Source: Seison nebaliae (lineage: Eukaryota). From it: a DNA stretch of 64,000 nt. Under the pieces are notes generated by a model. The model was not told the origin of the DNA. It worked only from the letters and a program-made list of their open reading frames with translations, and made no database searches. Made by a program: the position numbers and the translations under genes. The stretch lies in the NCBI GenBank assembly GCA_023231475.1, contig JALJEE010001494.1:1-64000 (forward strand), given 5' to 3'. The stretch's first letter is position 1, and the number at the start of each line of letters is the position of its first letter. Below are positions 3,809-64,000 of the stretch, in pieces.

Positions 3809-6800
3809 TTATCGATTTCGATTCATTCTTGTACGAACGAATCCTCGCGGAGTTCTCGTCGGTCTCGAGCTTAATGTTTTGTTATCTCTTCCGGGGAAGG
3901 GTGCATGACCAGTTGCAACGTTAATCGTTTCAGAAACGGACGTTCCCAATTGTGGTCTACTACGATGATCGATCGATCCAGTACCAGGAGTACTTCGATT
4001 GATAACGGCGCCCGGATTCCGACTTTTCCATAATTGTGACGGTAATCTAGGAGAAGCTTGTGTCGATTCTATTAAATTTTAAATATTTGAATTAAATTCA
4101 GAAAATTAAATTTTTGTAACGATCGAAATTTGTCATAGTTTCCACCGTTTCAGGGATGTCGTGAACTAATCGTTTGTTTAATGACGTTCGAGCAAATTGC
4201 GGTGCATGAGTCGGTGGAATTGATTTCGGTCTCGTCATATTTCCTTGTGAAGGTTTTTCTGTTGGTGATGTTCTTGTTCTAGCAAATCTTGGATCTGTTC
4301 CTCCAGTGATGTGAGTTCGTTTTCCAGACGGAACGGTTCGTCTTCCTGGTATTGGTTGACTATCGACAAACGTATCTGCAGCGGTTCGGATAGTTTTCGG
4401 TTCTTCGAATGGTAATAATGACTCCGGAAGATGATCTTTTGTATCTCGTCGACCTTCTTTCGATTTCTTCTTCGATGTTACAAGAGATGTAGACGATTTT
4501 TTAGTTATAGCAGATGACGATTTCATAGGTGTATTAGACGGTTTTGATGTTGAACTTCGTTGTCCAGTTGGCGGCATTTGTTCACGAGATGTCGTTTTTA
4601 TCGGACTGAGACCGGTAGAACCTCCCGGAACCATTGTGGATGATCTGGTGGTGGATTCGTTTGGTTCAAATGTCGGTTCGTTCATTTCCATCGCTATATT
4701 GCCAGTGTTGGTTTCTGGTGGTTGTTCTGATGAGACACTCACTTGATCTTGAATACCACCACGAGAACTTGTATGAATAATGGCTTGGCTACTTTTCTTC
4801 GCTGTTGATAGGACCTTCGATTTACTTTCGGTTGGTTGCAATTGCCCTACTGATTCCGATTTGGCCATTGGACTTGCTGATTCCGATTGCGGCATTGGAG
4901 TTGGTGATTCAGATCTGAAGGTTGATCGATCTGTTACTGACATTGTGCTATCTTCTTCACAATTTCTTGGTAAGAATTGATATAACTTCTTCACTTCATT
5001 ATCAGTTAAATCGTAGAAATTCGGTTTGGAACTATAAAGGAATTCGGAACAAACCGTCTGTATGGTTCTTCCCGACGGTAATTTCATATTAGCATTCCAG
5101 GCTTGTAGGAAAGCTTCTTCATTCTGTTGTTCTAAATTGAGAAATATTAAATTTCTCAGTTTCGTCGCTGAATAAAATTCAAATTCACTTTCTTCTTGAT
5201 TCATCAAATGTCCGTAAATTTTCCGCAATTCTCCCAATTTCATCGAATTGATTCTCTTCCAAGACGATTTACCTATTTCTGCAATCTGCTGGGGACTGAC
5301 AAACAACTTGTCCACTTCTCCCACTGACACTCCACAAAGTTCGGCAAATCTACGTATTGGTGTTTCTCCTCTAGGCATTTCTTTTAAACGACACGAAAAT
5401 TCCGTCGCCATATTCGTAACCGATTCCTTCCTAATATTTTTCAATTCCTTTTTCAATACTGCCATCGATTCCAATACATCATCCGAATTTGACGACCATT
5501 CAAGTTCTTTATCTAAATCTATTTTGTACATTCGACTACCGATTCCGTCCGCTCGAATAGTTTCGATATAACAACCATGTTGATCGTTTCCCATTGATTG
5601 GATGAGTTCCATATTCTCATAAACTCCATCCGAAGAGATATGAGGTGCATTATCATCATCTAATGCAATTTTTACATATGCTGCTTTTCCTAAATTTTGA
5701 GGTCGGTTCACGTTTTCAGATTTAGCGACTGATTGATGGTGAGATGATTGAGCAATAGTTGGATGGTGGGATGATTTTCCGACCGTTTGATGGTGAGATG
5801 ATTGAGCGATAGTTGGATGATGAGATGATTTTGCAACAGTTTGACGGAGAGATGATTTGGCGACTATTTGACGGTGAGATGATTGTGCGACTGATTGATG
5901 GTGAGATGATGGAGAAATTGATTGATGATGAGACGATTCAGCAATTGACTGATGATGAGACGATTCAGCATTTGGTAGATGATGAGATGATTGATAATGA
6001 ACAGACTTATCAGGAGTTTGCTGATGCATCACCATTGATGATTGTGCTATCGGTTGTTCCGCTGTTGATGGTGGTATTGGGTCAGAATTATGGCTTCTGA
6101 TTGTTTGTGACGCTGCATCATGGGGTATGTTTGACAGTTCTACCGGTTGTTCACGTGGCAGAAATTTACATTCATCAAATCTGGGTTGTGATGGTGGAGG
6201 TTCAACGTTCTTTTTACGTGTAAATGACGTTTTCAATTTACACAATCCTCGTAAAATCGCTTCTTGATCGAACGTATATTGATAAATTTGATATACGAGA
6301 ATTGCGAAAAATGCCAGACACACATTCACCCACGAACAAATACGATAAAGGAAATAAAGTGGCATCAATATAGGAACGTAACTCTTAAAGGGGAAAACCC
6401 AAGTCCATAAAAAAGATCCCACAAAACCGGCCATACTAGCACCAGGTGTAAAAAAGGGAAAAGATCGGGAACCTTCGTCATCTGATTCTTCAGATTCGGA
6501 CGGACATTTTGGACGAGTGAAAAATGCCGAACAAGTATCTTTACTACTCTGAGTTCGACGACATGGCGTAGCTGAAGGAAATAAGGGATTACTTTCTCTT
6601 TTACAACTCTCGACAGTATTCCTCAATTGTTTCACTTCTTTCATTAACACCTCCAACGGAACATTATCTCTCAATCTGATATTCGATTGTTTACAAATAT
6701 TTGCAGACATATTCTTCTTCATCTCCGCACACGTACTGGGTGGTGTTACTTTTTCACTTAACGATTTTTCACTTTTCACTGTTGACGGTTTTTTTTCCAC

Positions 6801-7352
6801 TTCTGTTGATACGCAAGCGTCACGCGTTGTATCTTCCGATGCTCCACAATCAGTACATTCGTACTCCACTAAATCACCAGTACATTGGACATCTTCCAGT
6901 ATCAATCGATCCGGACAAGTTCCATCAGCAAAATAGCCTTGGAACATTGCCGAGAAAGTTTTATTTTGTTTCGTTTCACTCGATATATCAACATCTTTTT
7001 TCTTATCTTTAAATTTCGCATATCGAAACAAATCTTTTCTAAAACTATAAATGGGACCCAGACCTTCAGTTTCAGCTTCCTGACCGTTTCGATCTACAGA
7101 TGCATAATTATTATTGAAGTTCGACAGTGTGTACGGATCAATGTTATTATTAGTTCTATTTTTAACTCTTTGCTCATCTTGCTTTGTTTTATGACGACGA
7201 TATCTAGAAGTCGAATCATTTCTCTTTAACAATTTTACATTTGTCCCTTTAACTGCTCTACGATGTGACATAGCAGTTAACGACAACGAAGTGGAGTGGA
7301 ATAAAAAATACGAAATTCAAATTAAGAAAAAATAAAAGTATTTGGTTTTCAT
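3809..7352 (-). CDS. Orphan ~1100-aa protein with a hydrophobic (probably membrane) block, Ser/His/Gln repeats and an S/T/P-rich tail; two exons
   Basis: 1062-codon ORF. A 52-nt GTTACA...TAG intron (4120-4069) joins it in frame to a terminal exon ending TAA at 3809-3811. Start is either ATG 7271, or ATG 7352 if the in-frame TGA at 7317-7319 is bypassed or an error. No family recognised. Confidence 0.7.
5721..5995 (-). repeat. Coding tandem repeat, about 10 degenerate 27-bp units encoding SSHHQ(S/T)(I/V)A(Q/E/K)
   Basis: Translation SSHHLPNAE SSHHQSIAE SSHHQSISP SSHHQSVAQ SSHRQIVAK SSLRQTVAK SSHHPTIAQ SSHHQTVGK SSHHPTIAQ SSHHQSVAK. Confidence 0.85.
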
Positions 7353-8239: not shown

Positions 8240-8680
8240 AGTACCATATCTTTATTAAAATGGTGATAGTTTAAACAGTTCCTAAAAATAAATTTGATAT
8301 TATTTTTACTTTCGTCTGGAGCTATTTCACCACCTTTTGCCTGTTTTATAATGTTCAAATAGTTTTGAAATAGGACGTTAAATTGAAATATGAAAAGTTA
8401 GATAAAATTTAACTTCTTTAATTTCACTTCTGTTTATATCTGATGAGAACTTTAAATTTATAATGAATGGAATTAATTTAATAAAAATTAATTAATAAAG
8501 GATGGTGGATTAAACAACTTGATTCTTTAACTATTTTTGTAAATTCATTAATATTGGTATATATTTCTAGCTTTAAAATTTGTAATATTTAATTTATGTA
8601 ACTGTCGATTTTCAAACGAAACATCAAGATAAGAAGGATGGAGATAGAGTTAAACATGTAATTATACACGTCATTTATGA
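8240..8680 (-). pseudogene. Diverged duplicate (copy A) of the segment at ~11760-12245; probable decayed gene fragment, cut off at the LINE insertion
   Basis: Shares a near-identical block (agttagataaaatttaacttctttaatttca..gtttatatctgatgagaactttaaatttataatgaat) and tacacgtcatttat with copy B. Similarity stops where RT sequence begins at ~8680. Confidence 0.5.
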
Positions 8681-9530
8681 TGATCAATGCGATCAACTCT
8701 TCAGGAAGTAACAAGGCCAACGACATAGACGGGATTTGTCCAAAACTCGTGCAATGTTGTGAAGAGAGACTGTCGCCGTTTCTTCTCGAAATCGTCAATC
8801 AAGCTTTCGACACAGGAGTGTTCCCCGTCGAATGGTTCCGCTTCAGAGCAATTCCATTGCTGAAGAAACCATCTAACGATACACACGAACTGAATTCTTA
8901 CCGTCCGATCTGCATTAGTCCATTCATGCTTCGTCTCATCGAGCGAATGGTACTCAACAGATACAGGACGAGTTTTTATTCCTCTCCTCATCAATTCCAG
9001 TACAGAGTTGCTGATCGCAGCGTCCATCCGATTCTTATCATATTCCACTCATTATTCTTCGAAGCTCGACCACAATACTCACAATTACACGCGTTGTTCC
9101 TCGATGCATCGAAAGCTTTCGATTCCACTGACGTGGTACCGGCTTTCTCCTCCATAGCAGCTAGGAACACACCGGATATAGTTTTGCGTTTTCTCCGTCA
9201 ATTATGTTTCTTTTCCACCGTGTCGCTATCATTCAATCATACTCTGGGAACTCCTTTCCTGGTCAACAATGGTGTCAGACAAGGTTCCATTCTGGGACCT
9301 ACCGAGACTACCGATCATATCCGAAATAAATTCGTCCGTGCATCATTCTCATTCGCAACACGATCGAAGTATTTTCCACTTCCAATCCGAATTCGTGTTT
9401 TCTCTTCACTTGTCCTCCCATTATATGGGAGTGCTGTTGGAATTGTCTCTTTTTGGGAATTTACAGATTTATTTATTTTTTTCTTTTCTCTCTTTCCTTC
9501 TTTAAATGAATAAATAAATAAATAAACATA
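8680..9530 (+). mobile_element. 5'-truncated, internally deleted non-LTR (LINE) retrotransposon RT fragment
   Basis: RT motifs YRPICIS, QFQYR, LFLDASKAFDS, GVRQGSILGP. The YADD region is missing (jump at 9300/9301). T-rich 3' region followed by a (TAAA)n tail at ~9509-9527. Confidence 0.88.
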
Positions 9531-9926
9531 AATTAAAAAGAAATTTAAAAATTATTATTAATAAATTTCTTGCTCATTCTAGCATTATGAAACCGTAATA
9601 TGAGACAGAATTCACATATTGATGATAATGCGACAAACTTTATTCAATAAACTTAAACGTCAATCACATTTTCATAACTTGATCCACAAAAAATATTACA
9701 TAAGGCAACTGTGTCTTATTAGATATTTGATAAATAATAGTGAGAAAATTTATCAATTTTACAAAATGAGATAAACTTATTTAAACATTCACTTTCGTTC
9801 ATTAATATAATATCAACAAAAATTAATTTTTTTATTCAATTTAAAAAAAATAGAATTTGTTTGATATTAAGCTTCGAAGATCTAAATAATAAAGTTTTTG
9901 ATTAAAAATATCATCAGAAGTGAAAG

Positions 9927-11282
9927 ATGTCGATGAAATTAACCGTGGCAATTTGCCAATTGAAATGTTTAAAGAATAAATGGAAGAACATAGAGAAGGT
10001 GACAGGAATGATCGGAAGAATCATGAAAGATAATTCTAAAGTCAAATTAATTTGTTTACCAGAGGCAGTTGATGTGTTTGATATTGAAAAGGAGAAATTG
10101 ATTAATGAGGCAATTAAATGGCCGTTCGATTTGAAAGAGAGAAATATGTTGACGGAATGTATGGAATTAGCGAAAAAGTATCAAGTGCAAATTTCAATTG
10201 GGAGTTGTCATGTCCATCGAAAAGAAGAGAAGAAAATTCGAAATACTCATATTCTTATAAATGATGATGGTGAAATAATCGATATGTATGATAAAATACA
10301 TCTCTTTCAAATCTGTCAGAAGAATGGAATTGAAATAAATGAAAATAATTGGACGATCAATGGAACAAAATTGAAATCATCAAAAATATCAAACGGTTTC
10401 ACTTTCGGATATGGAATTTGTTTCGATGTTCGATTTCCGTTAATGGCCGATCGTTTACGACGAGAGAGAAATGTTGATATTTTGACATATCCAAGTGCAT
10501 TTACCAGACGAACTGGTGAAGATCATTGGAATGTTTTATTGAGATGTCGAGCAATTGAAAATCAATGTTATGTTATAGCTGCAACACAATATAATCAAAA
10601 TTTAAATAGTACTTATGGTCATTCGATGGTAATTGATCCATGGGGTCGAATATTAATCGATTTGAAAAAAGAAGAAGATATTTATGGAATTTGTGAATTA
10701 GATAAAACTTTAATAGAAGAATTAAGAAATTCTCTACCAATTACTAATGTTCGAAATGAATTAAATGATTTTTATGATAACAAACCATCACTCATCAATC
10801 CGATAAATTGGGATACTAAACAAATATATTTTAGTTCAAAAATTTTAGTTCCATCAAATCAAATTTTTTGTAGAACAAAATTGTCTTTTGCTTTCGTTAA
10901 CATCCGTCCATTACTCCCTTATCATATTTTAATTTCTCCTTTAAGAAATGATGTGAAAAGATTCACCAATTTAACCAGTAAAGAAAATGAAGATATTTTC
11001 CAATTAAGTCAAATTATTTGTAAGAAATTCGAACAGAATTTACACAGTGATTCCTTCACCATCGCCATTCAAGATGGTGAAGCAGCTGGACAATCTGTAA
11101 GTCATGTCCATATTCATTTAATCCCTCGTATCTTCAATGATTTGGAGAACAATGATGATATTTATAAGGAATTGAATCGTGATATGGAAAGAAGTTTATC
11201 CGAAGAAAGAAATAATCGTTCTCTTGCAGAAATGGAGAATGAAGCAGTTTATTTGAGGAATATTATCTATGCACCACAATAA
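9927..11282 (+). CDS. NitFhit: NitFhit fusion protein (Nit1-type nitrilase-family amidase plus Fhit dinucleoside triphosphate hydrolase), intronless
   Basis: Nitrilase triad motifs CLPEA, YDKIHLF, GICFDVRFP; also YPSAFT and RAIENQCYVIAA. C-terminal HIT domain with AIQDGEAAGQSVSHVHIHLIPR and NDDIY. Confidence 0.95.
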   Translation: MSMKLTVAICQLKCLKNKWKNIEKVTGMIGRIMKDNSKVKLICLPEAVDVFDIEKEKLINEAIKWPFDLKERNMLTECMELAKKYQVQISIGSCHVHRKEEKKIRNTHILINDDGEIIDMYDKIHLFQICQKNGIEINENNWTINGTKLKSSKISNGFTFGYGICFDVRFPLMADRLRRERNVDILTYPSAFTRRTGEDHWNVLLRCRAIENQCYVIAATQYNQNLNSTYGHSMVIDPWGRILIDLKKEEDIYGICELDKTLIEELRNSLPITNVRNELNDFYDNKPSLINPINWDTKQIYFSSKILVPSNQIFCRTKLSFAFVNIRPLLPYHILISPLRNDVKRFTNLTSKENEDIFQLSQIICKKFEQNLHSDSFTIAIQDGEAAGQSVSHVHIHLIPRIFNDLENNDDIYKELNRDMERSLSEERNNRSLAEMENEAVYLRNIIYAPQ

Positions 11283-15449: not shown

Positions 15450-16554
15450 TTATGATTTGTCCTTTTTTAGACGAACTTGTTTCACCGTTTGATAGAGACC
15501 ATTGAATGGCAACGCTTTCAATATGAGCATGTCGATTTCTTGGAAACTTATCTTCAAATCTTTCAGATCAACAAAGAAAAATTTAATATTTTGAGCTTGA
15601 GGATAATTCCTTAAGAATAAATGATCCTTGTCAATTGTGAGACATGATAGTTGAAGGAAATCCACATTCTCGATATGATTAATGTCGCACAAGATTCTTC
15701 CTTCATTCGACAATCGAATTTGACAATTAATTTTAAATGTTTTCCGCTCTTTATTCTCACACTGAATTCGACGTTTGATGATTTTCATTTGTTCTTTCGT
15801 TAAATAGAATTGACGAACGACATTAATAATCTCTTCGAGATCCCAATGTTTCATAAAACATGAACAATTATCATGCACTAAATGTTTCGTATCATTCTTT
15901 TGTATTCGCTCCACAATCGCTTCACATTCTTCACAAAGTTGTTCGGTGATCATTCGATGGAATGCCGTCAATCTTCCACTACAATGTTGCAACATCGTTC
16001 CAGGTTGATGGTCGAGGAAACATAAATGTCCCAATTCGTGTAACAGAGCTGACCATTCGTTATTGATGGAATCAACCTTCTTTTGTAAGATGGCGCATTT
16101 TACTTTTTCTTAAAAATTTATTGGAATTTCCATATAATAAATATAATGAAAAATAATAATAAAAACCTTTCTTACATAAATAGTCCAATTCGTCTATGTT
16201 GCGCCAAGAATGGGGAGTTATCGAGAGGAAAATATATCGACCAATAGTCAGTGTGGCATTGTCGAAACTAATTAATGACGAATGAATAATGTAGACGTTA
16301 AAGAAGGTGGAATTTGGTTGTTTATTTCGATCGTGATCTCGGGCGAAATTCATCATTTGTGACGTCTTGCTAAATAGATATTTTGTGACAGTATTGGAAT
16401 ATTTTAATTTGATTGTGGGTAATACTCCTCCATTGAATCGGAAGACTTCTGCGAAATAATCGAACATTTTCGTCGCCATCGCTTCGACGAAACGTTTCGT
16501 ATATTCATCGCGATATGGAGAGATATATTTAATATGGATCACATCCATCGACAT
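15450..16554 (-). CDS. Putative zinc metallopeptidase (HExxHxxxxxH), possibly a divergent YIL108W/Metallopep-like protein; two exons
   Basis: A 58-nt GTTTTT...AAG intron (16166-16109) joins ORFs 16072-16554 and 15450-16034 in frame, giving WSALLHELGHLCFLDHQPGTML (motif at 16008-16040, candidate Met-turn). The family assignment rests on weak resemblance. Confidence 0.65.
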
Positions 16555-16907: not shown

Positions 16908-18889
16908 TCAATTGGATGGTGGAATTGGATAAGTGAATCGCTGATTCATCAATTGACTAGATGTGTCGTCATAAGTTCCATAGACATCGGGAATACCAGT
17001 CTGGTAGTAACCAGAGGGCATGTTCGGAGGTAGTTGAGTGTAAACGTGTGAAGGATTAGGAGGTGGCACTTGTGTCTGTGGTTGTTGCAAAGTGACATGT
17101 GCATATTGCTGCGAATAATCATTAGGATAAATAGGATATTCATTCTTTTGTCGTAAATATGGATTATGAGTAAATTGTCCCATCGTCATTGTTGGTTGAG
17201 CTTGACCCAATTGTTGTTGTTGTTGTTGTTGTTGAAGTTGTTGATTAATTATTGGAGGAATGTTTTGAGATGGATGAGTCAAATTATTCGATTGAATTAA
17301 TCCATTTGAATTATTGGTTGGTTGAAGGAGATAACCGGTATACAATCCTCCATTTGAACCGATTTGTGAATAAGCACCTAATGCATCTCCATTTATTCCC
17401 AATTGATCATACGAATAAATTAATTGTGGCATTCCATTCTGGAAATTCTGTTCCATATATTCCGGTTGTTGTTGTTGTTGTTGTTGTTGATGTTGATGAT
17501 GATGATGATATATTTGTTGATCTTGTGATTGTTGATCAACAATCGGTAGATCATGTTGTTCCTGATGATAATCAGTTGGCGACGGTTCGATCTATTTGAT
17601 GAGAATTCATAAATTTTATAAAAATTTTAAATTTTAACTGATTTCGATTGATCGACAATTCCATTCTCTTTCACTTCCTCTTTATCAGACGATGACGATA
17701 CCTCTAAATTTCCCGTTTCTACAATTTTCATTTCCTTCTCACAATTCACTTCCAATTTGATATCTTCAATTTTCGTATCAACAATCTCAACCGCCGAATC
17801 CACCGGTTTATCCTCCGTCTGACCATTAACCTTCTCCTTTTGCATTCGATTCAATAATTCATTCCGTCTCGTTTGTTCTCGAATAAATTTTGAAGTATCT
17901 TCATCATTCGGTATATGTGTCGTGGCAATAGATCCAAAAGTTGACACATCTTTTTCTAAATCATCACCACAATAATTTCCACCATCATTCTCTATATCAA
18001 ATCACAAATTTCATTATCATCATCATCATCATCAAAGGATAAAATCGTTAAACTTTTATGAACATCAGATGCATCTGCAGTTCCTTCATCGTCACTTCCT
18101 TTTCTCCGTTTTTCAGCGATATCTCTCGCCACAGCTTGTGTATGTCTCAATTTCTCTTCGTCCACCACCGGCACAGGAACACTAAAAAATAAAGAATATT
18201 TTTGAAAGATTTTGAAGAAATAAAATAGAAACTTTGAATAAACTGAAAAAGCACAATCTTTTGAAGAAGAAATCTCTTCGGGAAGAGGTGGTCCCAATTC
18301 TTCTTCATTCAATTCTGTCATTTCTTCCATTTCCATCTGTCCAAAAATCATTTTATTTCAATCTCTTACGAACGTTAGAGAAAACTAACAGAAAATTTCA
18401 ATAAAGTTTTCTCTTCTAAACTTCGTTCGATCGGTCTATTCTGCTTAGTGATATCTTTATCAATAAAACAATTTCCTAGAAAAATAAATTGGAGAAATTG
18501 GTTGGAAATGGAAAAAAAACCGTTAGAAATATTCTTCGAATTCATTTCGCGTGGAATGTATTCGATCGAAGCAATTTGTTTCAAATCTATTTGTACTTGA
18601 TCCTTCTCCACTCTCTCTCCATCACTACTCGTCCAATTGGTGAACGTTAAACAATTCTAGAAGAAAATCGTTAGAAAACCGTTGGAGGAAAATCGAGAAC
18701 TTTCCGATTCTGAAATTTCATATTTCCATAATGCTTTTGCCCATCGATCGTCGTGATAATCGTCTTTCCGCCATCCTGAATATGACATGAGAATAACCAT
18801 CAAAAAAAAAAAGAAGGAAATCGAACAGGAAAATATTTTTCGAGAATGGCCAAGTTATCCTCAATTCCATGTCCATTTTCATAAACCAT
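16908..18889 (-). CDS. Ataxin-2/Pbp1-like protein (divergent LSm and LSmAD regions, Q/P-rich C-terminus); eight exons
   Basis: Exons 18889-18827, 18775-18701, 18656-18521, 18475-18390, 18336-18233, 18181-18054, 17991-17639, 17591-16908 splice into one open frame. Motifs FIDKDI, EEKTLLKF, FSVYS.VPV, QAVARDIAE and DDLEKDVSTFGSI resemble the ataxin-2 LSmAD region; polyQ tracts follow. The exon structure is better supported than the family call. Confidence 0.6.
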
Positions 18890-30037: not shown

Positions 30038-32631
30038 ATGGATATTGAACCTTTTGATTCGGATGACGATTCATCAGAAACGTTTCATTTTCATTCAACA
30101 ACTTTTTCTTTTTTACTTTCTTCTTATTTTGCACGTCACTTACACATTTATGTTCTACATTCACCCAATATGCGCCCAGTGTATAAGAATCTCTTTTTAC
30201 TTTTCTATTAGAACTCGCAATCTTTTATTTGGTTCGAATAAATTTAATAGAAATTTAAATTCACCAAACAATTGGGTTCCGTATATTGTTGTGAGTTTGG
30301 ATCACCATCATTCTGATACCGACCAATATATTGAAACGACCATTCCCGATCTCACAACGAACAACGACCGACATAAAATTCGACGTAATATAATTTTACA
30401 TGAAAACGGAACATCAATTTCAGCAAACGGACAAAATTCAGGTGTAATATTTTATTATTTTAAATTATCCGCTATTAATACTATTATTATTTGAAGGAAT
30501 GAATAGTGGGAAATTGAATGAAAATGACGAATCGAATTGTGTGGAGAAGTTGTCACCGACTGATTATGAGAATATAAAGAAATCGTCATTTGATCGATTT
30601 CGTTATGCTACTTCACATTTGTGGGAGATGCAAGATAAATCACATGAAGCATTAATTCCAATGAATAGTGGGAAAAAGTATCCAGGTTCAGCACATTTAA
30701 CAACTCTCTCAAAGAGTGAAAGGAAAGCGAGTAAGAGCGAAAGAAATGATGAATGTGTGAGACATTTATTAAAGTTGAATGAAACGATTGCTCAGTCCAA
30801 TTCTAATCAATTAACAAATAATAATTCTCCAAATAATTTGGAGTGGTCTTCTAAATTAAAATATTCTTCAACAATCATTTCATCTCTTTCAGCAACTACT
30901 ACTACTACTACTACTACTACTACGACCATTACTCTCGCAGAAAGTTTTAATACTACTCCTACTACTCCTACTACAAATATTTCAATTATCACTCCAACTA
31001 CTAATGCAATTAGTGTATGTAGCGCGGAAAGTTCGACTAAAATTATCGATGCCAATACAACAATGAGCATGATACCATTAGAGACGTCGAATAAATTTAA
31101 AAGTTTTTTTTCTAAAATAAAATTTAATTTTTTCATTCTCTTTCATCGAATAGATGTTGAAGAGAGTGAGAAAAGTTATACGATAAATGTACCCATCATT
31201 TCATGTGAAGCGACTTATTTGTATGAAATGGAATTGGAACGATTGGAAGGAAATGAAATATTCTACGAGTCGATTAAAGACACGTTAGAAGTGGAGGAGA
31301 TTGACGAAGAAACGAAATTGAAACAAATCGAACATTTCAATGAACGAATCAATTCAGAAACGACGAAATTCCGTCTTGGAGATTATGAATGGAATTCATT
31401 GAGAGATCAGCCAGTTTTATCGAAAGATCTCGAAAGATGTAACAAGATGAGAGATTTCCTTTCCAATAAAATTATCGATATGGAGAATCTAATCAAGTTT
31501 ACTTGGAATGGTATTCCTAAACCATTTCGTTGTTGCACATGGAAAATTTTGATGGTTCTCATTATCATCATTTTTTATAATTTATTATTCATTCTCTTTT
31601 ATCAGGATTATATGCCTGTCAATCATACGACACGCTTCAAAACTTTACGGAGAAAACGAGCACAATATTGGAATGAAGTTCAACGATATTTCGTTACGAG
31701 AGATAAAATGAACAAAGTCACATTCAATCAAGTTCAATTTGAATTTGTTGAGTTTGTTAATGAAGAAATTGTGTTTAGATTCATATCGATATTCTCCGCA
31801 TGAATCCCGGTATTACATTGTTCGCCCAGAAGCGTGTTCAACAAATATTTGAACGCGTCTTGTTCATCTGGTCGATCAGACGACCCGCTTCTGGTTACGT
31901 TCAAGGGATTAATGATGTTGTCACACCGTTTTTCGTCGTTTTTCTTTCGGAGTTCGCTCAAATGCATAATGTTGGAGAATTGTTGAAGTATAATGCAACC
32001 GCGTTGCCTCATTCTGTTTTGGCGGTGATAGAAGCTGATTGTTATTGGTGTGTTTCGTCCGTGTTGGATCGCATTCAGAATAATTACATTTTCAACTTAC
32101 CCGGTATTCAAGATAAGTTGCAGGATTTGGAGAATATCGTGAAGAAAGTGAACATGCAAATTCACGAACATCTCAAACATCACAAGATCAAATATCTCCA
32201 ATTTGCATTCCGTTGGATCAATAGTCTTCTCCTCCGAGAATTACCTTTACGTTGTGTCGTTCGTTTATGGGATACATATTTAGTTCGATTTTATTTTCAT
32301 TCAAATTTTCAAATTTTCAAATTTTATTCATTTTCTAGTCTCAAGATGAAAGTTTCCAAGAATTTCATCAATATGTTTGTGCAGTCTTCCTCAATCGATT
32401 CCATAAAGAAGTTCTTCGTGAAAATGATTTTCAAGTTTTCTTTCTTTCACACAACTTCTTTATTTATTATTTAAACATTTAAAGGATTTATTGATGTTGT
32501 TACAGAATTGTCCTACACATAAATGGAACGATGATGACGTCCGATTGTTGACGGCAGAAGCTTATCTCTATAAATTTCTTTATTCCGATGCTCCCGGTCA
32601 TGAATGTAAGCGAACGGTAAGTGAATATTAG
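30038..32631 (+). CDS. TBC1D22: TBC1 domain family member 22 (Gyp1-like Rab GAP); about eight exons
   Basis: Spliced product has WNGIP..R..TWKILM|DYMP, FNQ|IHIDILRMNP, RPASGYVQGINDVVTPF, IEADCYWC, YLQFAFRWINSLLLRELPLRCVVRLWDTYL. Introns 30082-30250 (or -30211), 30442-30496, 31103-31153, 31555-31605, 31732-31778, 32283-32338, 32435-32484. 5' exons are less certain. Confidence 0.92.
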
Positions 32632-34098: not shown

Positions 34099-34819
34099 TC
34101 GGCTATACTTGATCCTGAATGGGAAAAGAAAAATTTTCAAAATGAAAAAATGAAAGTAAAAATGAAAAATGAAACTTTCTCTTTCAATACAAGAATAATT
34201 GTTTTAGCAAAATATCGTTTCACACCACTCACCACATACACTTCCAATACGATGATGAATAGGAGAAATAAGAAGAGTAAGATATCTGAAGAGAAGAGTG
34301 ACACTTCAACGATAAATCGATTGAAATCGTCACCGTCTACTTCAATATTATCGTTGAATAAAATGATGATGAAACGAGATTTGTCCGATCAATGCAAATG
34401 ACGACTAAAAGGAAAGATGAGAAAATATTAAAATAAAAGTGATTGTTGGAAAAGAAATGAAAGTTTACTCCCTATTTATATAATTCTCTTCGAATGCGTT
34501 TGGAAGGAATTTGTAAAAAATAAATGCGCGATCTCCGAATGGATTTAATTGTCTTCCTTATTTAGCCAGATAAGAAAACCGTTGAAGAAGAATAGTTGCG
34601 AAATAGAATGACACAAAAAAAAATTACATGGAAGTGGTTGGAGGCGAGAAAACAAAAGAAAAATGAACTTTAAGTCAACTGTCATTTGTCCATATGTCCA
34701 GAGAGCACTTCCGTCCAATTCGAAAATATATTCGAAAGTTAAGCATAATGTTAATGGGAAAAGTTATTTGTTTGTAAAAAAGACAATTTCAATTGTTTGT
34801 GAAGGAGATATTCAATGAA

Positions 34820-36888
34820 ATGGCAAATATATTTGTGGAGAATCATTTGAGTTTCGATGTAAAAATCGAATCGAGTAAAGAATGTCTCGATCCATCAAAT
34901 GCCAAGTATATAGCCTATGTCATTCATATAAGAGCGAGTAAGATTAGTTGGAAATGTTATAAGAGATATTCACAATTCCTCCAATTCAATGAATCATTGA
35001 AACATTTCGAATCGATTGACTCCATCAAATTATTCCCTTCAAAATTCTCATTCCGACTCAACGAGACTTCTTCTGAATTCATCGAGAAACGTTTGTTAGC
35101 ATTGGACAAATATTTATGTTCATTTACTAATGAATTACTAAATGCTTTGAATACTCATCTGACATCTAACACCACTCCTACCATTCCACATGACGATAAC
35201 AATCAACAAATACTCGTTTACTCCAAAGTCTTCTCATTATTATGTCAATTCCTTGATTTTCCTTTATACGTTTGACATCATCACTCTCAATCATCATTAT
35301 GGTTAATTATATTTTAGGAAATCAATTTTATTATTATGAAAATGTCAAACAACTTCTTCTCAAACGGTTAGTGTCACGTTTATTTCACGATAAATGACCT
35401 GATTGGAAAAAGGCGAAACGATAATTAAAGAAAATAATAATTCTTATGAATTCTCCGTTTTACAATTATTCGCGTTCAACGAAGCATTTATGAAGAATCG
35501 ATTGAAATTTCCTTGTTAGATGATTATTTATTGATTATTTCATTATTCATTTTAATTGATATTCTTAGATTGTCGATCAGATGAAGATATATCTCATTCC
35601 ATTGAAATGATGAAATTGTTGAAGAATGTGACGGTTCGTTTTCTTTTATATCAATAATTATTATTGGACAGATTATCGGTAGTAATGATCGATGGAAGGA
35701 ATCGAATATCATTCCAAATGATTTACCATTCTCATTATTGTCATTCACCAATATCGATCGACTTCAAGTTCTCTCATCTCTCTCAATTTTATCAATATTT
35801 CATGTTCAATTCAATTCGTATTCAGATACAGAACGTTAATATTGATGTCATATCTGGATTTGAGGAAGTGAAAAAATGTTTGAAAACTTTCTATTGTCAC
35901 AATTCCATCGATCGAATTATGGTTGCCCTTTTCCTTTAACTATTTCACCCAATTGCACGTTATCGTTCAGATGTTGTCGTTAAACGGTGTACGATTGAAG
36001 GATATAGAGATGGATAATGAACAGAAAAATTTTTGTACAAAAATCAAATTAAACGGTTGGGCACAATTGACGACGGTGGATTTGTCACATAATTCTCTGG
36101 AGAATTTAGATTATTCAATTGTTAGTTCGATTGAGAATTGAGACGAATTGAAATTTTTCTTTAAATTTTTCCTTCTCAGAAATTGATGTGTAATATCGAA
36201 TCATTCGATTTGAGTCATAATCAATTGGAGAATGTTCAATATTTGGATTTATTGAGTTCGTTATCGAGATTAAATTTAAGTTATAATAAATTCGTTCAAT
36301 TGCCCAATGATTTGTCGTCGAAATTGGGCAATATCAAAACACTCGATCTTTCTCATAATCAATTGAGGAACGTGAATGGATTAGGCACATTATACTCATT
36401 AGTCAATTTGTCGTTAATCGATAATTGTTTGAAAGAATTCGACGATATTGCTGATCTCGGATCATTACCATGTCTAGAAACTCTACAATTATATGGGAAT
36501 CCTCTACAGAAAATGATTGATTATCGAGCGAAAGTTTCTTCTTCATAATTTCCATTTGAATTTATTAATTATTTATTTTAATTATTAATTTAATTTATCT
36601 ATAATTTAAAGATTCTCTCCATCTTTAATGATCGAGCAGCGAATATCTGGTTAGATAACGTTCAAACGACAACACGCGAATTGGATATCGCAAATATTAT
36701 GATTGCTATTAAGAATGCAATGCAATTAGCTGATAAGTTAGTGAAGTCATCCTCCCTCCCACATCTGAACTAGTTGTTGAAAATTTGCAATTTTAATTAG
36801 TAAACCGATTAAACTGAATTTGAGTGGATCATACAATACGATGAATGATCGCTGTCTTATCAAACCGCCGAATAAAGAGTTTAACTAA
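34820..36888 (+). CDS. NISCH: Nischarin-like PX plus leucine-rich-repeat protein (short invertebrate-type form); about ten exons
   Basis: PX domain (YIAYVI..W...KRYSQF..F..FPSK..FIEKR..LDKYL), FLDFPLY|EIN, LRRs (VDLSHNSL, LDLSHNQL, LYGNP..DYRAK). Nine introns: 35270-35317, 35367-35412, 35515-35568, 35634-35671, 35768-35825, 35922-35970, 36121-36179, 36534-36611, 36737-36800 (the last is uncertain). Confidence 0.85.
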
Positions 36889-37542: not shown

Positions 37543-39115
37543 ATGAAGTTGATGAAAAATGATGATTGGAATCAACTCTCTTATTTATCGGGATTCGGTA
37601 ACGAATTCACATCCGAATGTATCGAAGGTGCAATACCAATCGAACAGAATTCACCACAAGTCTGTAAATTTGGATTATATGCTGAACAATTATCAGGAAC
37701 TGCTTTCACCATGGGAAGGAAGAGGAATTTCCGCTCTTGGCTCTACCGACGACTCCCATCGGTGAAACATGGTGAATATAAACCGTTGAGGAATTTGTTA
37801 TTACCTGCCAATTTCTCATCAAACTTTTCACCGAATCATCCCGAATGTTCCATTGATCCATCACCAATTAAATGGTCACCATTTCCCATACCAGATCATA
37901 AAGTCAACTTTGTGAAAGGATTGACAACAATTGGCGGTGCTGGTGATCCAACTATTCGACATGGATTAGCTATCCATATTTATGCATGTAACGAATCGAT
38001 GGGGTCGAAATTGACATTTAACAATTCCGATGGTGATTTTCTTATCGTACCACAGGAAGGTCGATTATTTATTCGAACGGAATTTGGTCGATTAATTGTC
38101 AAACCAAATGAGATTTGTGTCATTCAAGTTCATCTTTCAAATGATCAAAATGATTTTTAAATATTAATTTTCTAGTTGGGAATGAGATTTAGTGTTGACG
38201 TAGAAGGAAATAGTCGTGGATATATTTTAGAAGTGTTTGATGGTCATTTTACAATTCCAGATTTAGGACCGATCGGTTTTAATTAAATTTAATTAATAGA
38301 AAAATAATTTATTTAATTTGTGTTAGGTGCAAATGGTTTAGCGAATCCACGTCATTTCTTAAGTCCATCAGCATATGAAGAGGTGGGAGAAGCACATCAA
38401 TTAATCATCACTAAATATCAAGGAAGATTGTTCGAGTATGAACAGACTCATTCGTGTTTCGATGTGGTGGGATGGCATGGCAATTATGTGCCATACAAAT
38501 ATGATTTGTCGAAATTCATGGTAATCAATAGCGTATCATTTGATCATTGTGTTCGTCATCATTCATTCTAATTCCATTAATTTTCCTGTTTGTTTAGGAT
38601 CCGAGTATATTTACTGTTCTAACATGTCAGAGTAATACTGTGGGTACAGCGATCGCTGATTTCGTCATATTCCCTCCACGATGGGGTGTCTCTGAAAATA
38701 CATTTCGACCTCCTTATTATCATAGTTATTATTATCATTCTCCTTCAATTGTTAAAACTAAAGAAAATTTAAAGGAAATTGTATGTCGGAATTTATGGGA
38801 CTGATTTTCGGAGCATACGAAGCAAAACCAAATCAATTATTGCCGGGAGGAGGAACTCTCCATTCAATGGGCACTCCACATGGTCCTGATGCTGATTGTT
38901 TTAAGAAGGCGAGTAGCGACGAACTGAAACCGGAACGGGTGGCAGAAGATACTCAAGTTCATCATTTCTCTTCTCAATTCACATATACATTTCTCTTGTA
39001 GTCTTTCATGTTCGAATCATGTTTGAGTATCGTATTAACGAAGACTGCACGACTGATGGCTGATGAAACATATAGTTCTTGCTGGGATGCACTCCAGAGA
39101 TGGAAATGCGACTAG
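37543..39115 (+). CDS. HGD: Homogentisate 1,2-dioxygenase; six exons
   Basis: [94 protein letters not shown]. Introns 38128-38175, 38276-38326, 38551-38597, 38725-38774, 38957-39001. Confidence 0.97.
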
Positions 39116-40837: not shown

Positions 40838-40976
<139 letters not shown>

Positions 40977-44088: not shown

Positions 44089-45643
44089 ATGTTCGATTCA
44101 TATGATCTTCAACATGTCATTCTGTCGAAGTTCGAGGGTGTATGGCGACAAACGACAGTCATTTCCAAAGTTGGAATGGATTGTTTCAACGGATTGGATG
44201 AGACGAGACTATTGAGATTAACAAGATCGTTAGTGAATAATCAGAATCATTTCTACAATAATCACACTACCACCACCACCACCACCATCAACCACAACAA
44301 GAACAATATGAGTTTAGAAGAAGAATTCTTCTCCAACATTCCTTCGTCGACAGATACATCCGAATATTTAATAGACGCAAGAAAATTGTATGCTATTTAT
44401 ACTCCCTGGCCATTATATATCGATTGTCTATTAAAATATATGTATCCCATCGTCATAGTTTCTAGCATCATTCTATCGTTGATCAATGTCTTTATATTGG
44501 CACAACCGATTATTCGTGTGGGACAAAATGCACGTTCATTCCTCTTCGCTACACTTTCCTGCGAGTCATTATTATTGTGCACCGCCTCAATTTTGTTATT
44601 GGACCAATATGTCGATCGATCGAAACATCATTCATCTTTCTTATCCTCTTCATCTACTTCATCTTCATCATCATCTGGATCACCTTCATCTTCACGATCA
44701 TCTCCATCACTTTCCACCGTCAATAAATTGAAATTCGACAATCGACTTCTCCTCTCACCACAATCCTCCTCATCATCCAACACTTCACAAACATCTACAT
44801 CTTCCTCGTCGATTGTCGCCTCTTCCCATTTCATGACAACAACATTACCGTCATCATCAACCGTCTTCAATATCAGTCGTAAACGGAATCGTCTAAATAA
44901 ACGGTTTTTAACCGATGACGTTTTCTTCACCGATTCCTTCAACAATTATCATTTATATCAATCCGACGATCAGGAAACATTGAACGCCGAATATCGTAAT
45001 TATTGGTTGAAGCAATCGTATTCATCGATGAACGATGATGACGAATTGAGACGATCTCATTTCTACATCGAAATTCTGCTTTACACACAACTCATCGCTA
45101 ATTATTTTCATTCGGTGCTGATAATATTAACATTATTCTACCTCATGTTCGCCGCCTTCGAACATACAATGACGTCATTGCAGTCAAACTGCTTATATGA
45201 ACGATATTTCTGTTCATCCATCCACATTCGAACAATTTCACTCATTCTCCCCATACTCATCAGTTTAACTTTACTTCCACAATTGTTCGCATATGAAATC
45301 ATTCCATATCATCAATTCGTGGAGAGGATCGTTAAGAAATATGAAATGATCGACGTCTCATCATACCAGATGAATGCCGACGACGCCCATGTACATCATT
45401 CCAATTTTTCAACTAATAAATCTTCAATTTTTCCTGATATCACCTCCGACAACGATAGTCATTTCACTCACACGTCAACAATCTCATCAAATTCTCAGAA
45501 TAAAACGAAAAATCAAAATCATCTCCATGAAGATAACGAAGCATTAAATATATTATTTTCACGATTTTATCTCCATTCCGATTTACTGATACCAAAATTC
45601 TCTTTGAAGAACGTTAACAATTCAAAAAACAATCCAAATCACA

Positions 45644-45683
<40 letters not shown>

Positions 45684-53300: not shown

Positions 53301-56300
53301 TTGTTTCTTACGATTGAATTTAATCGTTGTCATATTCGGTGTGAATATGATGAGACTGGACACGAGGAAAGTTGTGAGAAGGAGAAGGGAATAAAGACGA
53401 AGGGGAAGACGATATCATCAAAACGAAATTGTTTAGACGAGAAATAATTAGTTTAATTCGGTATTAATGTGATGGATGGAAGAAAATAGATAAGTCATCT
53501 CAGCTGTAATCGAGCAAATGGTTATAATAGAATAAGATGGAGCAATATAATAATAAATGAAATTAGTATAAGGTGTAGGTGGGAGATAGATTGGAGTTTG
53601 GATAAGATGTTAAGGTTTGTTGGGAATGTTCATTGGAATCTCTCTCAAATAATTGATTAGTGATACGAAATAATAAGTGTGCACACATTCCACACATTCT
53701 TCCTTCATTGTCGAATTGACAGTGAGCATTAGATCTAGTCGTGAGTCCTTGGACTGCAGTTTCTCAAATAATTGATTGAGAAGTGAGAAAACTATTAGGG
53801 ATTTCTTTAATAATTTCTTCCTTCCTTCGCGTCTTCGTACAATAATATAATTAAGCGAACTATTATATGATAATGATGATGAAATGGGCGTACAATCCCT
53901 ACAATCGTATATCACATTTTACTTCATAATGATGGCAACTTGTTATATTCATATCAATTGAAACATAAACACATTCTTCTCTACTCTACCACATTACGAT
54001 GAACTACCCAATTCCTTTCCACTCTTCTTATTTACTTCCATCTTATTCCTTCTTTTCTTCATTATTCCCAATCATTCAATGGGACTACTTATCTTCCTCT
54101 GCACAATGCGAACGTTAGCGATGACAATTAGCAATTGATAGCCATGTCTTCTTAGCACAAAAATAATCTTCGACTTAACATTTCTTCTCTCAATTCTCTC
54201 ATTTAACTACCATATTAGGAGTATGATACTCCAACCATCCCTCTCACACTCCAGCTTATTCTCGACTCTATCACAATTCGCCAACCGTTTGAAGATGTTC
54301 TCTTAAAGAACAACTCGACAACAACCCCATCATTTATTCTCCATCACCAAATCTTCTTCCAAAGTCTCCTTACGAAATTTTCGTTCAAAACTGAAAGGAG
54401 AATGTCTTCCCATAATTCTCATTTCAATATTTGATCGAATCATGTTATTTATAATCATTAGTGAACTGTTAGTTTAAGTGAAATTTAAAATTTATTTAAC
54501 TATCATTCACTTGAGTCACGTGAAGTTCAGAGCGATGTTGAAGTACTTAATTTCTCAATTGTGAGCAGCATTTGTTTCTCGATAAATTACTTCGATAGAA
54601 TTTTTTGGTTCATTCCATCAAATTCTCACAAGACACAAATTATTTATAAGGAATTATCGAACATTATTTTTGTCAGTTTCTTCAAAATCTATTTCCTCAC
54701 AATATTGAACGATGGCAAATGGAGAGAAGACTATTAATCATATTCTCCTGACGTGTATTGTTCTACTATTGATTGAGAACCACAAAGTATGTGGTGTGTG
54801 ATTGAAGAAGGAGAAGATTTTGGAAGTTGAGAAGAAAGAAATTAGTCATAAAGTTGAATTGTAAATTGTAAATTTATTAATTTTCCGAAAAGTAATTTTA
54901 GAAGATACAAATCCTCTTCAAAACAATATCAGGTAAAGAAATCGATACGATTCGCAAGATGTCGCATTTGTAGTTTGTATAATGGAAAAGAATCGAAATA
55001 TGGAAAATAATTTGATGAACGAACGTGGAAACTTGGCGAAGGAGAGAAACGGAAAATAAAAAGTTTTAAATAAAATTGAGAGGCGTAAACATTGTCGATT
55101 AGAAGTTCTCTTATTTGATCCTGAGTTTCATCTCGCAATCTTTCTCTGATTTCTTCATTTTATATTGGAGAAAGGAAAAGATTGCATTGAATCAATTGAC
55201 TAAGGAGGTTCTCAAAATATCTCAAACATATATGTTAATGGAGAACCTTCAGTTATTTTTTTGAGGTATTTGATGAGACGTTAAAGTGGAAAATGTTTGT
55301 GAGGAAAATGAGAAATTCGTTTCATGTTAATGCATTCCATTTTTATCGGTTACTCGTGCGATGAGGCGGAATCGAATGAAATGCAACTCGACGTAATGGA
55401 TTAGAAAAGTAATTCCGATGGTTTCCACATCTCTAAATCCGTCATGTCATTTCTAATCGTTTCTCTTATGATCCCCTTTTAATGTAATCGAACACACAAT
55501 CAATATCTCATCTCATGCATGTTGATTCGACCAATTCGAATGGACGAGTCATTTCACCAATTTCATTTTGAGAAAAGGAAACATTGAAATTTGAAGAAAC
55601 ATTTGTTAAAATGAAATTAATTTTATTTTCTTCAATGGAATCGATGAAATTAAATGATTAATTAGATATATCGCTGACATCAATAAATCAAATTATTTTC
55701 CCATTCACTTTATAATTATTTTTGCTGTTTTTGTTGTTGTTCGTTCTTTATATAGTTCTATATTGATCTGGCGAGTTAAGACTTTAATTGATGGATGTAT
55801 AAATATTAAGAATGTAACGTAAATTATTTGAGATTTGTGCAAATCATTAGGAGAAAACATAGTAAGACAAATAAATGTTATTTAACATTTCTACAAATTG
55901 AACTTGATGACATTTGTTATGAACAGAATAGAGATTTATGCAAAAATAATTATCATATTCCTCTAAGATCATAAGTGATGAGAAATGGTTCGACATTTCC
56001 TTTTTCCCAATTTCTTCTCATTCCCATCATGTAAACAATTAAAATAATAAAACATCATCATCAATTGATGCACTTCAAATTTTTCACTCATTACTGAAAC
56101 GACTCAGGAAAACGTTCACCATCACCATCACAATTTAATTGAATTATGGAAACTCTTCAATTTTCATTTTGAACTATTAATGTTCTTTGGAAAAACTTCC
56201 TTGAAATTCTTTTGGAAGACATGAGCTGTTTTCACATAAATTTCTCCTGCTTTATTTTTTATTGTGTCGTTGAAAAATTTTGGTTTGGACGAAAGAATAG

Positions 56301-62261: not shown

Positions 62262-62304
62262 GATGGATGGATGGATGGATGGATGGATGGATGGATGGAT
62301 GGAT
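62262..62304. repeat. (GGAT)n microsatellite
   Basis: About 10 GGAT units seen directly. Confidence 0.9.
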
Positions 62305-62617
62305 GAATGATATCAATGAGAGAACTATTACATTTTATGTTACTGATTTAAAGATTCTTCTCATCTATTATCTTACTTGAAATTTTTATGTCGTCATTCA
62401 TATGAAGTAGCAGCTAATTCCATTCTATTATTCAACTACTTCCTCCCGTCCCACTAGATAACTGAAGGTGTCATCTCATTACAATGACGACTTATGACTA
62501 GAGTAGATTGCATATATCAAACTTCATTTCTCTTCTGCTGCTATGACTTACTGATCAATCGACAATGCATTTCGTTGACGACATCCAAATGCTTCCTCTT
62601 CTAGTCAGCACTACACG

Positions 62618-64000
62618 ATGAGACCATGTCACATTGTGATTCCCTCTATAAGCATTTGGCGGCGAATTATGTCGATACATCTACTGTTTGCACTTTTTGC
62701 CGTCACAAATGCTTTCTCCAAAAACCGGATGTCGTCAACGGCATATGGCTACCGTCCTGGTGACATACTTCTTGGTGGCTTAGCTCCAGTTCATTTAAAA
62801 GTTTCTCTCCCTCCACTTTCGATTCTCTTAATAAATTGGTTCTCCAATTTCTATCATGTTTTAGAGCGAAGACGGAACGACTTGTGGCCGGTTGAATTTA
62901 GATCGTGGACTACAACGCGTCGAAGCAATGTTGTATTCAATCGATCGTATTAATCGAGAACCTGATACCAGATTGGATAATAACTTACGGTTTGGTATCA
63001 TGATTAAAGATACATGTTCGCGTGACAAATTTGCACGTCAACAATCGATGGAATTTGTTCGAAGACGAATTTCGCGAACGGATTGTTCGAAGAATAATCA
63101 GCCGAATGAATTACAATATATTCCGATTGTTGTCGGCGCCTCATATAGTGGCGTCAGTTCGGCCGTTGCCAATTTATTACAATTATTCGAAATATCATTA
63201 GTCAGCTACGCAAGTACGGGAGAGATTCTGAGTGATCGAGAAAACTTTGAATATTTTGCCCGAACCGTTCCATCTGATACTCAACAAATTGAAGCGATTG
63301 CTGATATTATTCAATATCTAAATTTTACTCATATATCCTATGTGGTTTCTGCTGGTGCTTATGGTCAATCAGCCACCAGAGTATTAAACGAAGCGATGAA
63401 GAAACGAGATGTTTGTGTCGCTGATAAATTGGTGATTGAGAATAAGCCTCAACAGAAACATTATGATAGTATTGCAACTCGATTGATCAAGAATGAAAAT
63501 TCAAATATTATCGTTCTATTTACTCGATCTGATGATACTACGGAATTGTTGAAAGCGATTAGTCATAGGAATAAAACTAATCGATTCCTTTTCATTGCCA
63601 GTGATGGTTGGGGTATGCAATCAAGTGTTGTAGCTCATAATCATGAGATTGCCAATGGTGCATTTACTCTAGAAATTAAATCGGTGAAAATGGATGAATT
63701 CCATCAATCTCTTCTCAATATCGGAAATAATGCCACCAGTTTTTATCATCGATCAAAAGCCAATCCTTGGCTTCGTGAATATTGGAAGGATCGATTCGGA
63801 TGTGAAATGAATCGACATTCAGTTCGATCTTCATTCTATGATTATAATTACTTCTCAAATGACAATAACGAAACATTTCGATTCTGCAACGACAAAGATC
63901 GATTGCCCAACGATTTGAAAATCGATTCGAAAGCACCATTCATTTATTATGCAGTGAAAGCGGCAGCTTTGGCTGTCAAAAGTGCATTGAGGCGTCTCGC
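62618..64000 (+). CDS. mGluR: Metabotropic glutamate receptor (class C GPCR), N-terminal Venus-flytrap domain, truncated by the window end
   Basis: Signal peptide and GDILLGGLAPVH, then a 64-nt GTTTCT...TAG intron (62801-62864). Exon 2 encodes GLQRVEAM, KDTCS, VVGASYSGVS..VANLLQLF, SYAST, YFARTVPSD, AYG, ASDGWG, NPWLREYW, DSKAPF. Alternative start ATG at 62669. Confidence 0.95.

Follow-up and report, generated by a model that had tools for sequence, protein, structure and literature searches.

Near-universal GTT intron starts in a 64-kb window of the rotifer Seison nebaliae, with a changed U1 small nuclear RNA as candidate cause

The locus and the evidence for its introns

The stretch of DNA considered here (the window) comprises 64,000 nucleotides (nt) of contig JALJEE010001494.1 (assembly GCA_023231475.1), and its subject is the way in which the introns of Seison nebaliae begin. 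The window is S. nebaliae DNA, with three exons (HGD P0001, TBC1D22 P0121 and nischarin P0241) matching NCBI models at 100%. Seison is a tiny, marine, epizoic rotifer (Gnathifera, Pararotatoria), and Mauer et al. (PMC8351084) group Seisonidea with Acanthocephala, with Bdelloidea sister to both. All intron counts for Seison come from the one window.

Introns were located by three lines of evidence, all of them blind to intron position +3. First, NCBI models were placed letter for letter on the window, yielding five introns in HGD, eight in TBC1D22 and nine in nischarin. Second, a spliced aligner of our own was run with profiles built from non-Seison homologs (60 HGD, 26 TBC1D22 and 10 nischarin) and required only GT or GC at the start of an intron and AG at its end. 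Third, supplement 2 of PMC8351084 provides Trinity transcripts, assembled from STAR-mapped mRNA reads and aligned with GMAP to an S. nebaliae assembly. At least 72 transcript rows belong to this contig, in coordinates that coincide with those of the window, and the rows listed contain at least 16 distinct gaps of 44-78 nt inside it. Ten of these 16 gaps can be placed in a single way, and each of the other six has exactly one GT-AG placement. The full set holds 35 introns from nine genes or transcripts on both strands, including one called manually (mGluR); the well-supported set holds the 28 fixed by an RNA gap or by donor-blind homolog alignment. In the following list the six letters are the donor hexamer, "model" denotes an NCBI model and "alignment" the donor-blind alignment.

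4069..4120, minus: 52 nt, GTTACA; RNA gap
16109..16166, minus: 58 nt, GTTTTT; RNA gap
17592..17638, minus: 47 nt, GTTAAA; gene at 16.9-19.0 kb, family unassigned; RNA gap
17992..18053, minus: 62 nt, GTTTAA; same gene; RNA gap
18182..18232, minus: 51 nt, GTTTCT; same gene; RNA gap
18337..18389, minus: 53 nt, GTTAGT; same gene; RNA gap
18476..18520, minus: 45 nt, GTTTTT; same gene; RNA gap
18657..18700, minus: 44 nt, GTTCTC; same gene; RNA gap
18776..18826, minus: 51 nt, GTTCGA; same gene; RNA gap
30082..30211, plus: TBC1D22, 130 nt, GTTTCA; model P0121 only
30442..30496, plus: TBC1D22, 55 nt, exception CAG/GTGTAA; model only
30686..30892, plus: TBC1D22, 207 nt, GTTCAG, doubtful; model only
31103..31153, plus: TBC1D22, 51 nt, GTTTTT; model only
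31555..31605, plus: TBC1D22, 51 nt, GTTCTC, position common with bdelloid-clade loci (GTA there); model and alignment
31732..31778, plus: TBC1D22, 47 nt, GTTCAA, position common likewise (GTA); model and alignment
32283..32338, plus: TBC1D22, 56 nt, GTTCGA, position common likewise (GTA); model and alignment
32435..32484, plus: TBC1D22, 50 nt, GTTTTC, position common likewise (GTA); model and alignment
34115..34175, minus: 61 nt, GTTTCA, upstream of a PUB-domain (UBXN6-like) open reading frame (ORF); RNA gap, PUB domain
34405..34468, minus: 64 nt, exception GTAAAC, upstream of the same PUB-domain ORF; RNA gap with a single placement, retained in one isoform
35270..35317, plus: nischarin, 48 nt, GTTTGA; model P0241 and alignment
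35367..35412, plus: nischarin, 46 nt, GTTAGT; model and alignment
35515..35568, plus: nischarin, 54 nt, GTTAGA; model and alignment
35634..35671, plus: nischarin, 38 nt, GTTCGT; model (the aligner instead chose GTG at 35628)
35768..35825, plus: nischarin, 58 nt, GTTCTC; model and alignment
35922..35970, plus: nischarin, 49 nt, GTTGCC; model and alignment
36121..36179, plus: nischarin, 59 nt, GTTAGT; model and alignment
36534..36611, plus: nischarin, 78 nt, GTTTCT; RNA gap, model and alignment
36737..36800, plus: nischarin, 64 nt, GTTAGT; model only
38128..38175, plus: HGD intron 1, 48 nt, GTTCAT; model P0001 and alignment
38276..38326, plus: HGD intron 2, 51 nt, GTTTTA; model and alignment
38551..38597, plus: HGD intron 3, 47 nt, GTTCGT; RNA gap, model and alignment
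38725..38774, plus: HGD intron 4, 50 nt, GTTATT; RNA gap, model and alignment
38957..39001, plus: HGD intron 5, 45 nt, GTTCAT; RNA gap, model and alignment
55768..55818, minus: 51 nt, GTTACA, transcript without a long ORF; RNA gap
62801..62864, plus: mGluR, 64 nt, GTTTCT; manual

Thus HGD has five introns, TBC1D22 seven or eight and nischarin nine, and several neighbouring ORFs have none. Removal of the seven RNA gaps from the minus-strand gene at 16.9-19.0 kb leaves an open frame of 558 codons. At the mGluR intron the downstream exon matches mGluR3 (E 1e-22) and the upstream exon has only a weak similarity to a class C receptor (E 1.4). The gene names UBXN6 and TRIM37 are putative labels given on domain content.

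GMAP applies a rule of its own in recording a gap as a deletion or as an intron. All 16 RNA-supported introns of the window (4069-55818) were recorded as deletions, as by eye were most gaps of 40-90 nt among the rows listed, perhaps because such introns score poorly when standard splice models are applied. Contigs from four sequencing runs over 31100-39130 are DNA-like, with no intron-skipping joints, and have no bearing on splicing either way. Beneath the main contigs over the same interval, three runs have further contigs of low depth that share about 80-90% identity with the window; their differences lie mostly three bases apart in coding sequence, and they span two nischarin introns. They fit a second, diverged lineage, as described for S. 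nebaliae in PMC8351084.

A T at intron position +3

The base at +3 is T in 33 of the 35 introns, A in one, G in one and C in none; the donors are accordingly 33 GTT, one GTG (30442) and one GTA (34468, minus strand), and T stands in 32 of 34 when the doubtful intron at 30686-30892 is left out. Each line of evidence gives a similar picture. The NCBI models hold 21 GTT and one GTG (n = 22). The donor-blind aligner called 17 introns, 16 of which coincide with the models and are GTT without exception (16/16), the seventeenth being the GTG at 35628. Among the transcript rows listed, 15 of 16 RNA gaps begin GTT and one begins GTA. Within the well-supported set GTT starts 27 of 28 introns (Wilson interval 82-99%), or 27 of 29 if the GTG at 35628 is counted as the aligner called it. 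As background, T follows GT at 38.5% of the 5691 GT sites of the window and at 21 of the 40 (52%) that lie inside introns; 27/28 departs from these values with p = 1e-10 and p = 3e-7, respectively, and the RNA-only 15/16 departs from 52% with p = 5e-4. The T rule at +3 is real and strong in this window.

An earlier, sequence-only reading of the same DNA had arrived at comparable proportions by manual reconstruction: its 31/32 GTT donors, 10/32 with G at +5 and 8/32 with G at exon position -1 are close to the 33/35, 10/35 and 9/35 of the independent set. The nine donors that it quoted, its lone GTG at 30442 among them, are all present where it placed them; that GTG is given by the NCBI model and by no other line. 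Its statement that no donor begins GTA has to be withdrawn, since the GTAAAC donor at 34468 is spliced in RNA.

Two model junctions deserve comment. The frame runs open through the 207-nt TBC1D22 intron at 30686-30892, with no stop in 30499-31101, and the segment is probably coding. At the nischarin junction where the model uses GTT at 35634 and the aligner GTG at 35628, the model version aligns to nischarins free of gaps; this junction does not count in the well-supported set. Transcript rows that are unspliced or retain an intron occur often (35359-35810, 4069-4120 and 34405-34468) and may represent pre-mRNA, DNA carry-over or inefficient splicing. One such row, of 452 nt (35359-35810), passes unspliced through four nischarin donors, which therefore lack RNA support, and it speaks against a simple picture. 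A perfect canonical CG/GTAAGT lies at 32617-32622 (plus strand) in the last TBC1D22 coding exon; the NCBI model reads through it, no AG occurs 40-65 nt downstream and no RNA row covers the site.

The T might require no special reader, if donors had decayed to a bare GT and +3 merely reflected T-rich, TpA-poor introns, a local effect of the contig or biased models. Intron bodies are indeed 44-47% T with TpA odds of 0.62-0.64, and the data are a single 64-kb window. Such a background nevertheless predicts at most about 52% GTT, the positions adjoining +3 stand at background, the RNA gaps leave no freedom in the choice of a GT-AG placement, the rule spans all nine genes or transcripts on both strands, and the bdelloid-clade loci described below keep GTA at the same TpA odds (0.57-0.69). 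This explanation is accordingly hard to credit.

The remainder of the donor and the class of intron

All 35 introns are GT-AG, 16 of them visible as gaps in RNA-derived transcripts, and the purine at +3 that belongs to the consensus GTRAGT is present in only two. Beyond +3 the donor is loose. At +4 there are 10 A, 11 C, 1 G and 13 T, with no preference over background; G occurs at +5 in 10/35 (background 7.4%, p 1.5e-4) and at +6 in 1/35. The commonest hexamer, GTTAGT, is seen four times where 0.4 are expected (p 5e-4) and equals GTAAGT with a single change at +3. On the exon side A is the commonest base at -1 (17, with 9 G) and occupies -2 in 19/35 and -3 in 17/35; GTT is used with or without an exon-final G. 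T stands at background from +4 to +7, and the T at +3 is therefore a feature of that one position rather than the opening of a longer T tract. Further in, T rises to 22/35 at +8 and 25/35 at +9 (p 0.001), against 44% in intron bodies.

The raised T at +8 and +9 would suit a protein or modification reader, in which a diverged U1-C, LUC7 or TIA-1/Nam8-like factor recognizes GUU plus a U-rich patch, or in which pseudouridine or N6-methyladenosine (m6A) in U1 small nuclear RNA (snRNA) favours U at +3 with the U1 sequence unchanged. TIA-1 brings U1, by way of U1-C, to U-rich weak donors (PMC9311317); the U1-C of Entamoeba is highly diverged (10.1101/2022.06.08.495308); the m6A pattern of U1 and U6 is changed in Fritillaria (PMC13326754); and the proteins of Seison evolve fast (branch 1.21 in the tree described below). 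The background level of T from +4 to +7 argues against it, in that the +3 T does not simply open a U tract, and we regard such a reader as improbable.

The donor also bears on the register of pairing with U1. Shifted-register 5' splice sites, a rare class in humans, were reportedly described by Roca and Krainer in 2009. In Seison, a canonical U1 sitting one base downstream, or pairing with +2 bulged, would set its A7 opposite the U at +3. The prevalence of A at -1 and the enrichment of T at +9 are both predicted by a shifted register, which with all positions counted tells donors from decoys more successfully than canonical pairing in the normal register does (area under the curve, AUC, 0.74 vs 0.58). 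The G, however, is kept at +5 and not at +6, and the register is therefore normal; A does not exceed background at +4, +5 or +8, GTT is used whatever the exon-final base, and over positions other than +1 to +3 the shifted and bulged pairings of canonical U1 reach z of only 0.27 and 0.91, against 2.65 in the normal register with the changed U1 discussed below. The published shifted- or bulge-register sites likewise start GUU (PMC9311317), but they are a rare minority with a conserved G at +6, whereas in Seison the G is at +5 and GTT is the majority. A shifted register is very unlikely here.

In other respects the introns appear to be of the ordinary U2 type, defined across a length of 44-64 nt. 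They are AT-rich and short (median 51 nt), the acceptors are TAG (19), CAG (10) and AAG (6), and the 3' end is T-rich from -11 to -4. No branch-point motif rose above shuffled sequence, YTRAY being present in 16/35 introns against 14.5 expected by shuffling. RTATCCTT is the donor motif of U12-type introns, and it is found in 0/35. An origin from introners was also rejected: among the first 20 matches listed, introns share just 12-18 nt of low-complexity sequence, and such an origin is further opposed by four positions held in common with bdelloid-clade loci, two of them also with a distant eukaryote.

Bdelloid-clade relatives and conversion in place

Metagenome contigs scanned with a bdelloid TBC1D22 (P0175) gave 80 loci, of which 25 were aligned. 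Three of these, L011 (with four near-identical copies), L038 and L059, group together with two transcripts and with Didymodactylos at 100/100 support; the tree has no monogonont or acanthocephalan row, hence the label bdelloid-clade. Seison falls beside a sponge on a branch of 1.21, which is taken as a long-branch artefact.

The TBC-domain introns of the three loci begin GTA in 14 cases and GTT in three, the latter being one orthologous intron. This intron starts GTTTGT in every locus (L011 10880, L038 11193 and L059 459). Synteny between L011 and L038 extends for about 17 kb. With syntenic neighbours added, the 39 bdelloid-clade donors are 32 GTA, 6 GTT and 1 GTG, and the contrast with Seison is pronounced (Fisher p 7e-12), donors at orthologous sites not being independent. 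The neighbouring introns were called pairwise, giving 46 pairs with many false calls inside exons; 16 pairs (31 donors) were kept under thresholds set after the list had been viewed but blind to +3, and eight TBC1D22 donors were added. Unfiltered pairwise calls have T at +3 in 24/85. TpA odds (0.57-0.69) and the GTN background in these loci are similar to those of Seison, and composition therefore does not explain the contrast. The GTT rule is lineage-specific relative to the bdelloid-clade loci.

Four TBC1D22 intron positions are common to both (profile columns 211, 254, 420 and 452, all phase 0), and at these the bdelloid-clade donors are GTA in 10/10 and those of Seison GTT in 4/4. Two of the four also carry introns in L053, a locus from a distant eukaryote, where they start GTG. 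Because the positions are common and the relatives have GTA where Seison has GTT, these are old introns whose donors changed in place. RNA gaps, donor-blind alignments, the bdelloid-clade contrast and the conversion at shared positions together bear out the sequence-only reading in its central claim, that of a non-standard 5' splice-site code. As candidate mechanisms that reading named a changed 5' end of U1, altered U1- or U6-associated factors and donor recognition largely independent of U1.

How the donor may be read

The splicing machinery of Seison is likely to read intron starts differently. Position +3 faces position 6 of U1 snRNA (U1 sequence in PMC9311317), and a change of this base from U to A is the likely cause, a candidate to which we give slightly better than even chances on the pattern of the donors. 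The altered U1 5' end (ACUUAC to ACUAAC) would give a contiguous core of three pairs, G+1:C8, U+2:A7 and U+3:A6, which would be important given the weakness of the flanking positions (G at -1 in 9/35, A at +4 at background). The U-rich patch at +8/+9 may aid recruitment of U1 in the manner of TIA-1. The change probably came about by degrees, starting in an ancestor that already tolerated a minority of GTT (6/39 in the bdelloid-clade loci), and perhaps passed through a phase with two U1 variants. The A6 change is preferred because Entamoeba, with its dominant +3 U, has changed its U1, and because canonical U1 leaves most donors with a two-pair core.

Pairing scores agree with this candidate to a degree. 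Canonical U1 forms a mean of 5.13 pairs with the 35 donors and 4.80 with 1059 unused exonic GT sites (AUC 0.58). Over positions other than +1 to +3, A6 in the normal register gives the z of 2.65 cited above; an Entamoeba-like U1 with A5 and A6 gives 2.52 and is not separable from A6 alone. The main signal in this test is the G at +5, a base that is also read by U6.

Several observations weigh against a changed U1. A6 gives the largest gain among 12 one-base U1 variants (AUC 0.78), but this gain is circular, because any reader of a +3 U would produce it. A at +4 and T at +6 are at background, and a full U1 duplex is therefore not evident. In the window no U1 or U6 came to light: Rfam gave no match of any kind at gathering score (two sub-threshold snoRNA matches had E up to 1), and U1-like 5' motifs numbered 0/5. 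Avoidance in coding exons is stronger for GTA (0.76) than for GTT (0.91), a comparison confounded by TpA depletion (CTA 0.66). One published transcript has the GTA intron at 34405-34468 (minus strand, GTAAAC...TAG) spliced out, while another keeps it. Elsewhere, donor shifts at +4 have usually occurred with no change in U1, as in Saccharomycotina, Giardia, Trichomonas, Thecamonas and Mamiellales (10.1101/2022.06.08.495308; PMC10581693), and Fritillaria has two versions of U1 with identical 5' ends, the change lying in modification and proteins (PMC13326754).

Because the G at +5 is the only other enriched intronic base and is read by U6, selection of the donor at a later step must also be considered. 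Canonical U1 would then pair weakly and the +3 U would be selected by U6, U5 or PRP8: it could wobble against the G in the ACAGA box of U6, or pair fully if that box has changed, and loop I of U5 would pair with the A-rich exon ends. Roy and Bowser (10.1101/2022.06.08.495308) note that a +3 U can raise pairing with the U6 ACAGA, the A at -2 (19/35) and -3 (17/35) fits U5 pairing, and +4 changes in yeasts track U6-side factors and not snRNA sequence (PMC10581693). The bdelloid-clade loci, however, presumably have the same U6 box and yet keep GTA; the lack of a +4 preference and the limited +5 G make U6 pairing look weak; and a wobble pair would seem a small gain for a 94% rule. Selection at a later step is an unlikely explanation.

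Comparison with known donor codes

The closest precedent for the donor of Seison, and the one published lineage found with a dominant +3 U, is Entamoeba, all five species of which combine GUUUGU donors with a U1 that reads ACAAAC (10.1101/2022.06.08.495308). Both have near-universal +3 U, GT-AG ends and donors with which canonical U1 is unable to pair at +3. Entamoeba, however, is a protist poor in introns whose hexamer is strict (88-90% GUUUGU, with +4 U and +5 G fixed). In the animal Seison, those conserved genes that have introns carry 5-9 of them, and the donor is fixed at +3 only, with G at +5 in 29%, GTTTGT in 0/35 and T at +4 at background (13/35). The donor of Seison thus works like the transformed donor of Entamoeba, but without the strict GUUUGU or the intron poverty; a matching U1 is a candidate.

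Two other systems resemble Seison less closely. Saccharomycotina also show a lineage-wide change at a single donor position, an A-to-U switch linked to METTL16 and SNRNP27K (PMC10581693), but there it is +4, facing m6A43 of U6, with U1 and U6 sequences invariant, whereas Seison has changed at +3 and shows no preference at +4. Fritillaria borealis is, like Seison, from an animal lineage with a rewritten splice-site code (PMC13326754); its terminal dinucleotides have changed and new intron classes have arisen, with U2AF duplication and snRNA m6A implicated. Seison, in contrast, has kept GT-AG and converted old introns in place.

A GTT majority in Seison, rotifers or another animal was not described in the literature searched, which leaves most subscription journals outside it. 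By term search of the available text, the Pomphorhynchus genome paper and a 2025 paper on rotiferan parasites (PMC7310846, PMC12256650) do not mention introns or splicing, and PMC8351084 mentions introns twice, both times in connection with gene span.

Other features of the window

Besides the genes with introns, the window holds the following.

8662-9510, plus: reverse-transcriptase fragment (Pfam RVT_1), covered by a transcript row
9924-11279, plus: intronless ORF of a nitrilase-HIT fusion (NitFhit-type; Pfam CN_hydrolase and HIT)
12943-14308, minus: reverse-transcriptase fragment (RVT_1), split over two frames
40838-40975: long (ATC)n microsatellite
44080-50307, plus: single open frame of 2076 codons, in which a long low-complexity middle part separates hydrophobic stretches near the two ends
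55477-56250, minus: transcript spliced at the GTT intron 55768-55818; the region lacks a long ORF

The last of these is a non-coding RNA or a distant untranslated region. Two expressed genes on the minus strand, at 16.9-19.0 kb (about 558 codons) and 15.4-16.6 kb (about 348 codons), had no Pfam match in the exons scanned.

Significance

In eukaryotic gene expression few features are as conserved as the purine at +3 and the 5' end of U1, and reports of transformed donors have come chiefly from yeasts and intron-poor protists. For such changes Roy and Bowser (10.1101/2022.06.08.495308) offer two models, one in which misfit introns are selectively lost and one in which co-evolution follows the loss of introns. 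Seison fits neither as written, because this animal retained ancient introns and altered their donors in place. Its GTT donors may be scored wrongly by splice models trained on standard animals. The parasitic sister group of Seison is Acanthocephala. It appears to us an even question whether Seison is the first animal in which the 5' end of U1 was rewritten (to ACUAAC), in a genome that is not intron-poor and in which nearly all ancient introns would have passed from GTA to GTT in place. If so, U1 and the donor code are able to evolve together in an animal whose genome is rich in introns.

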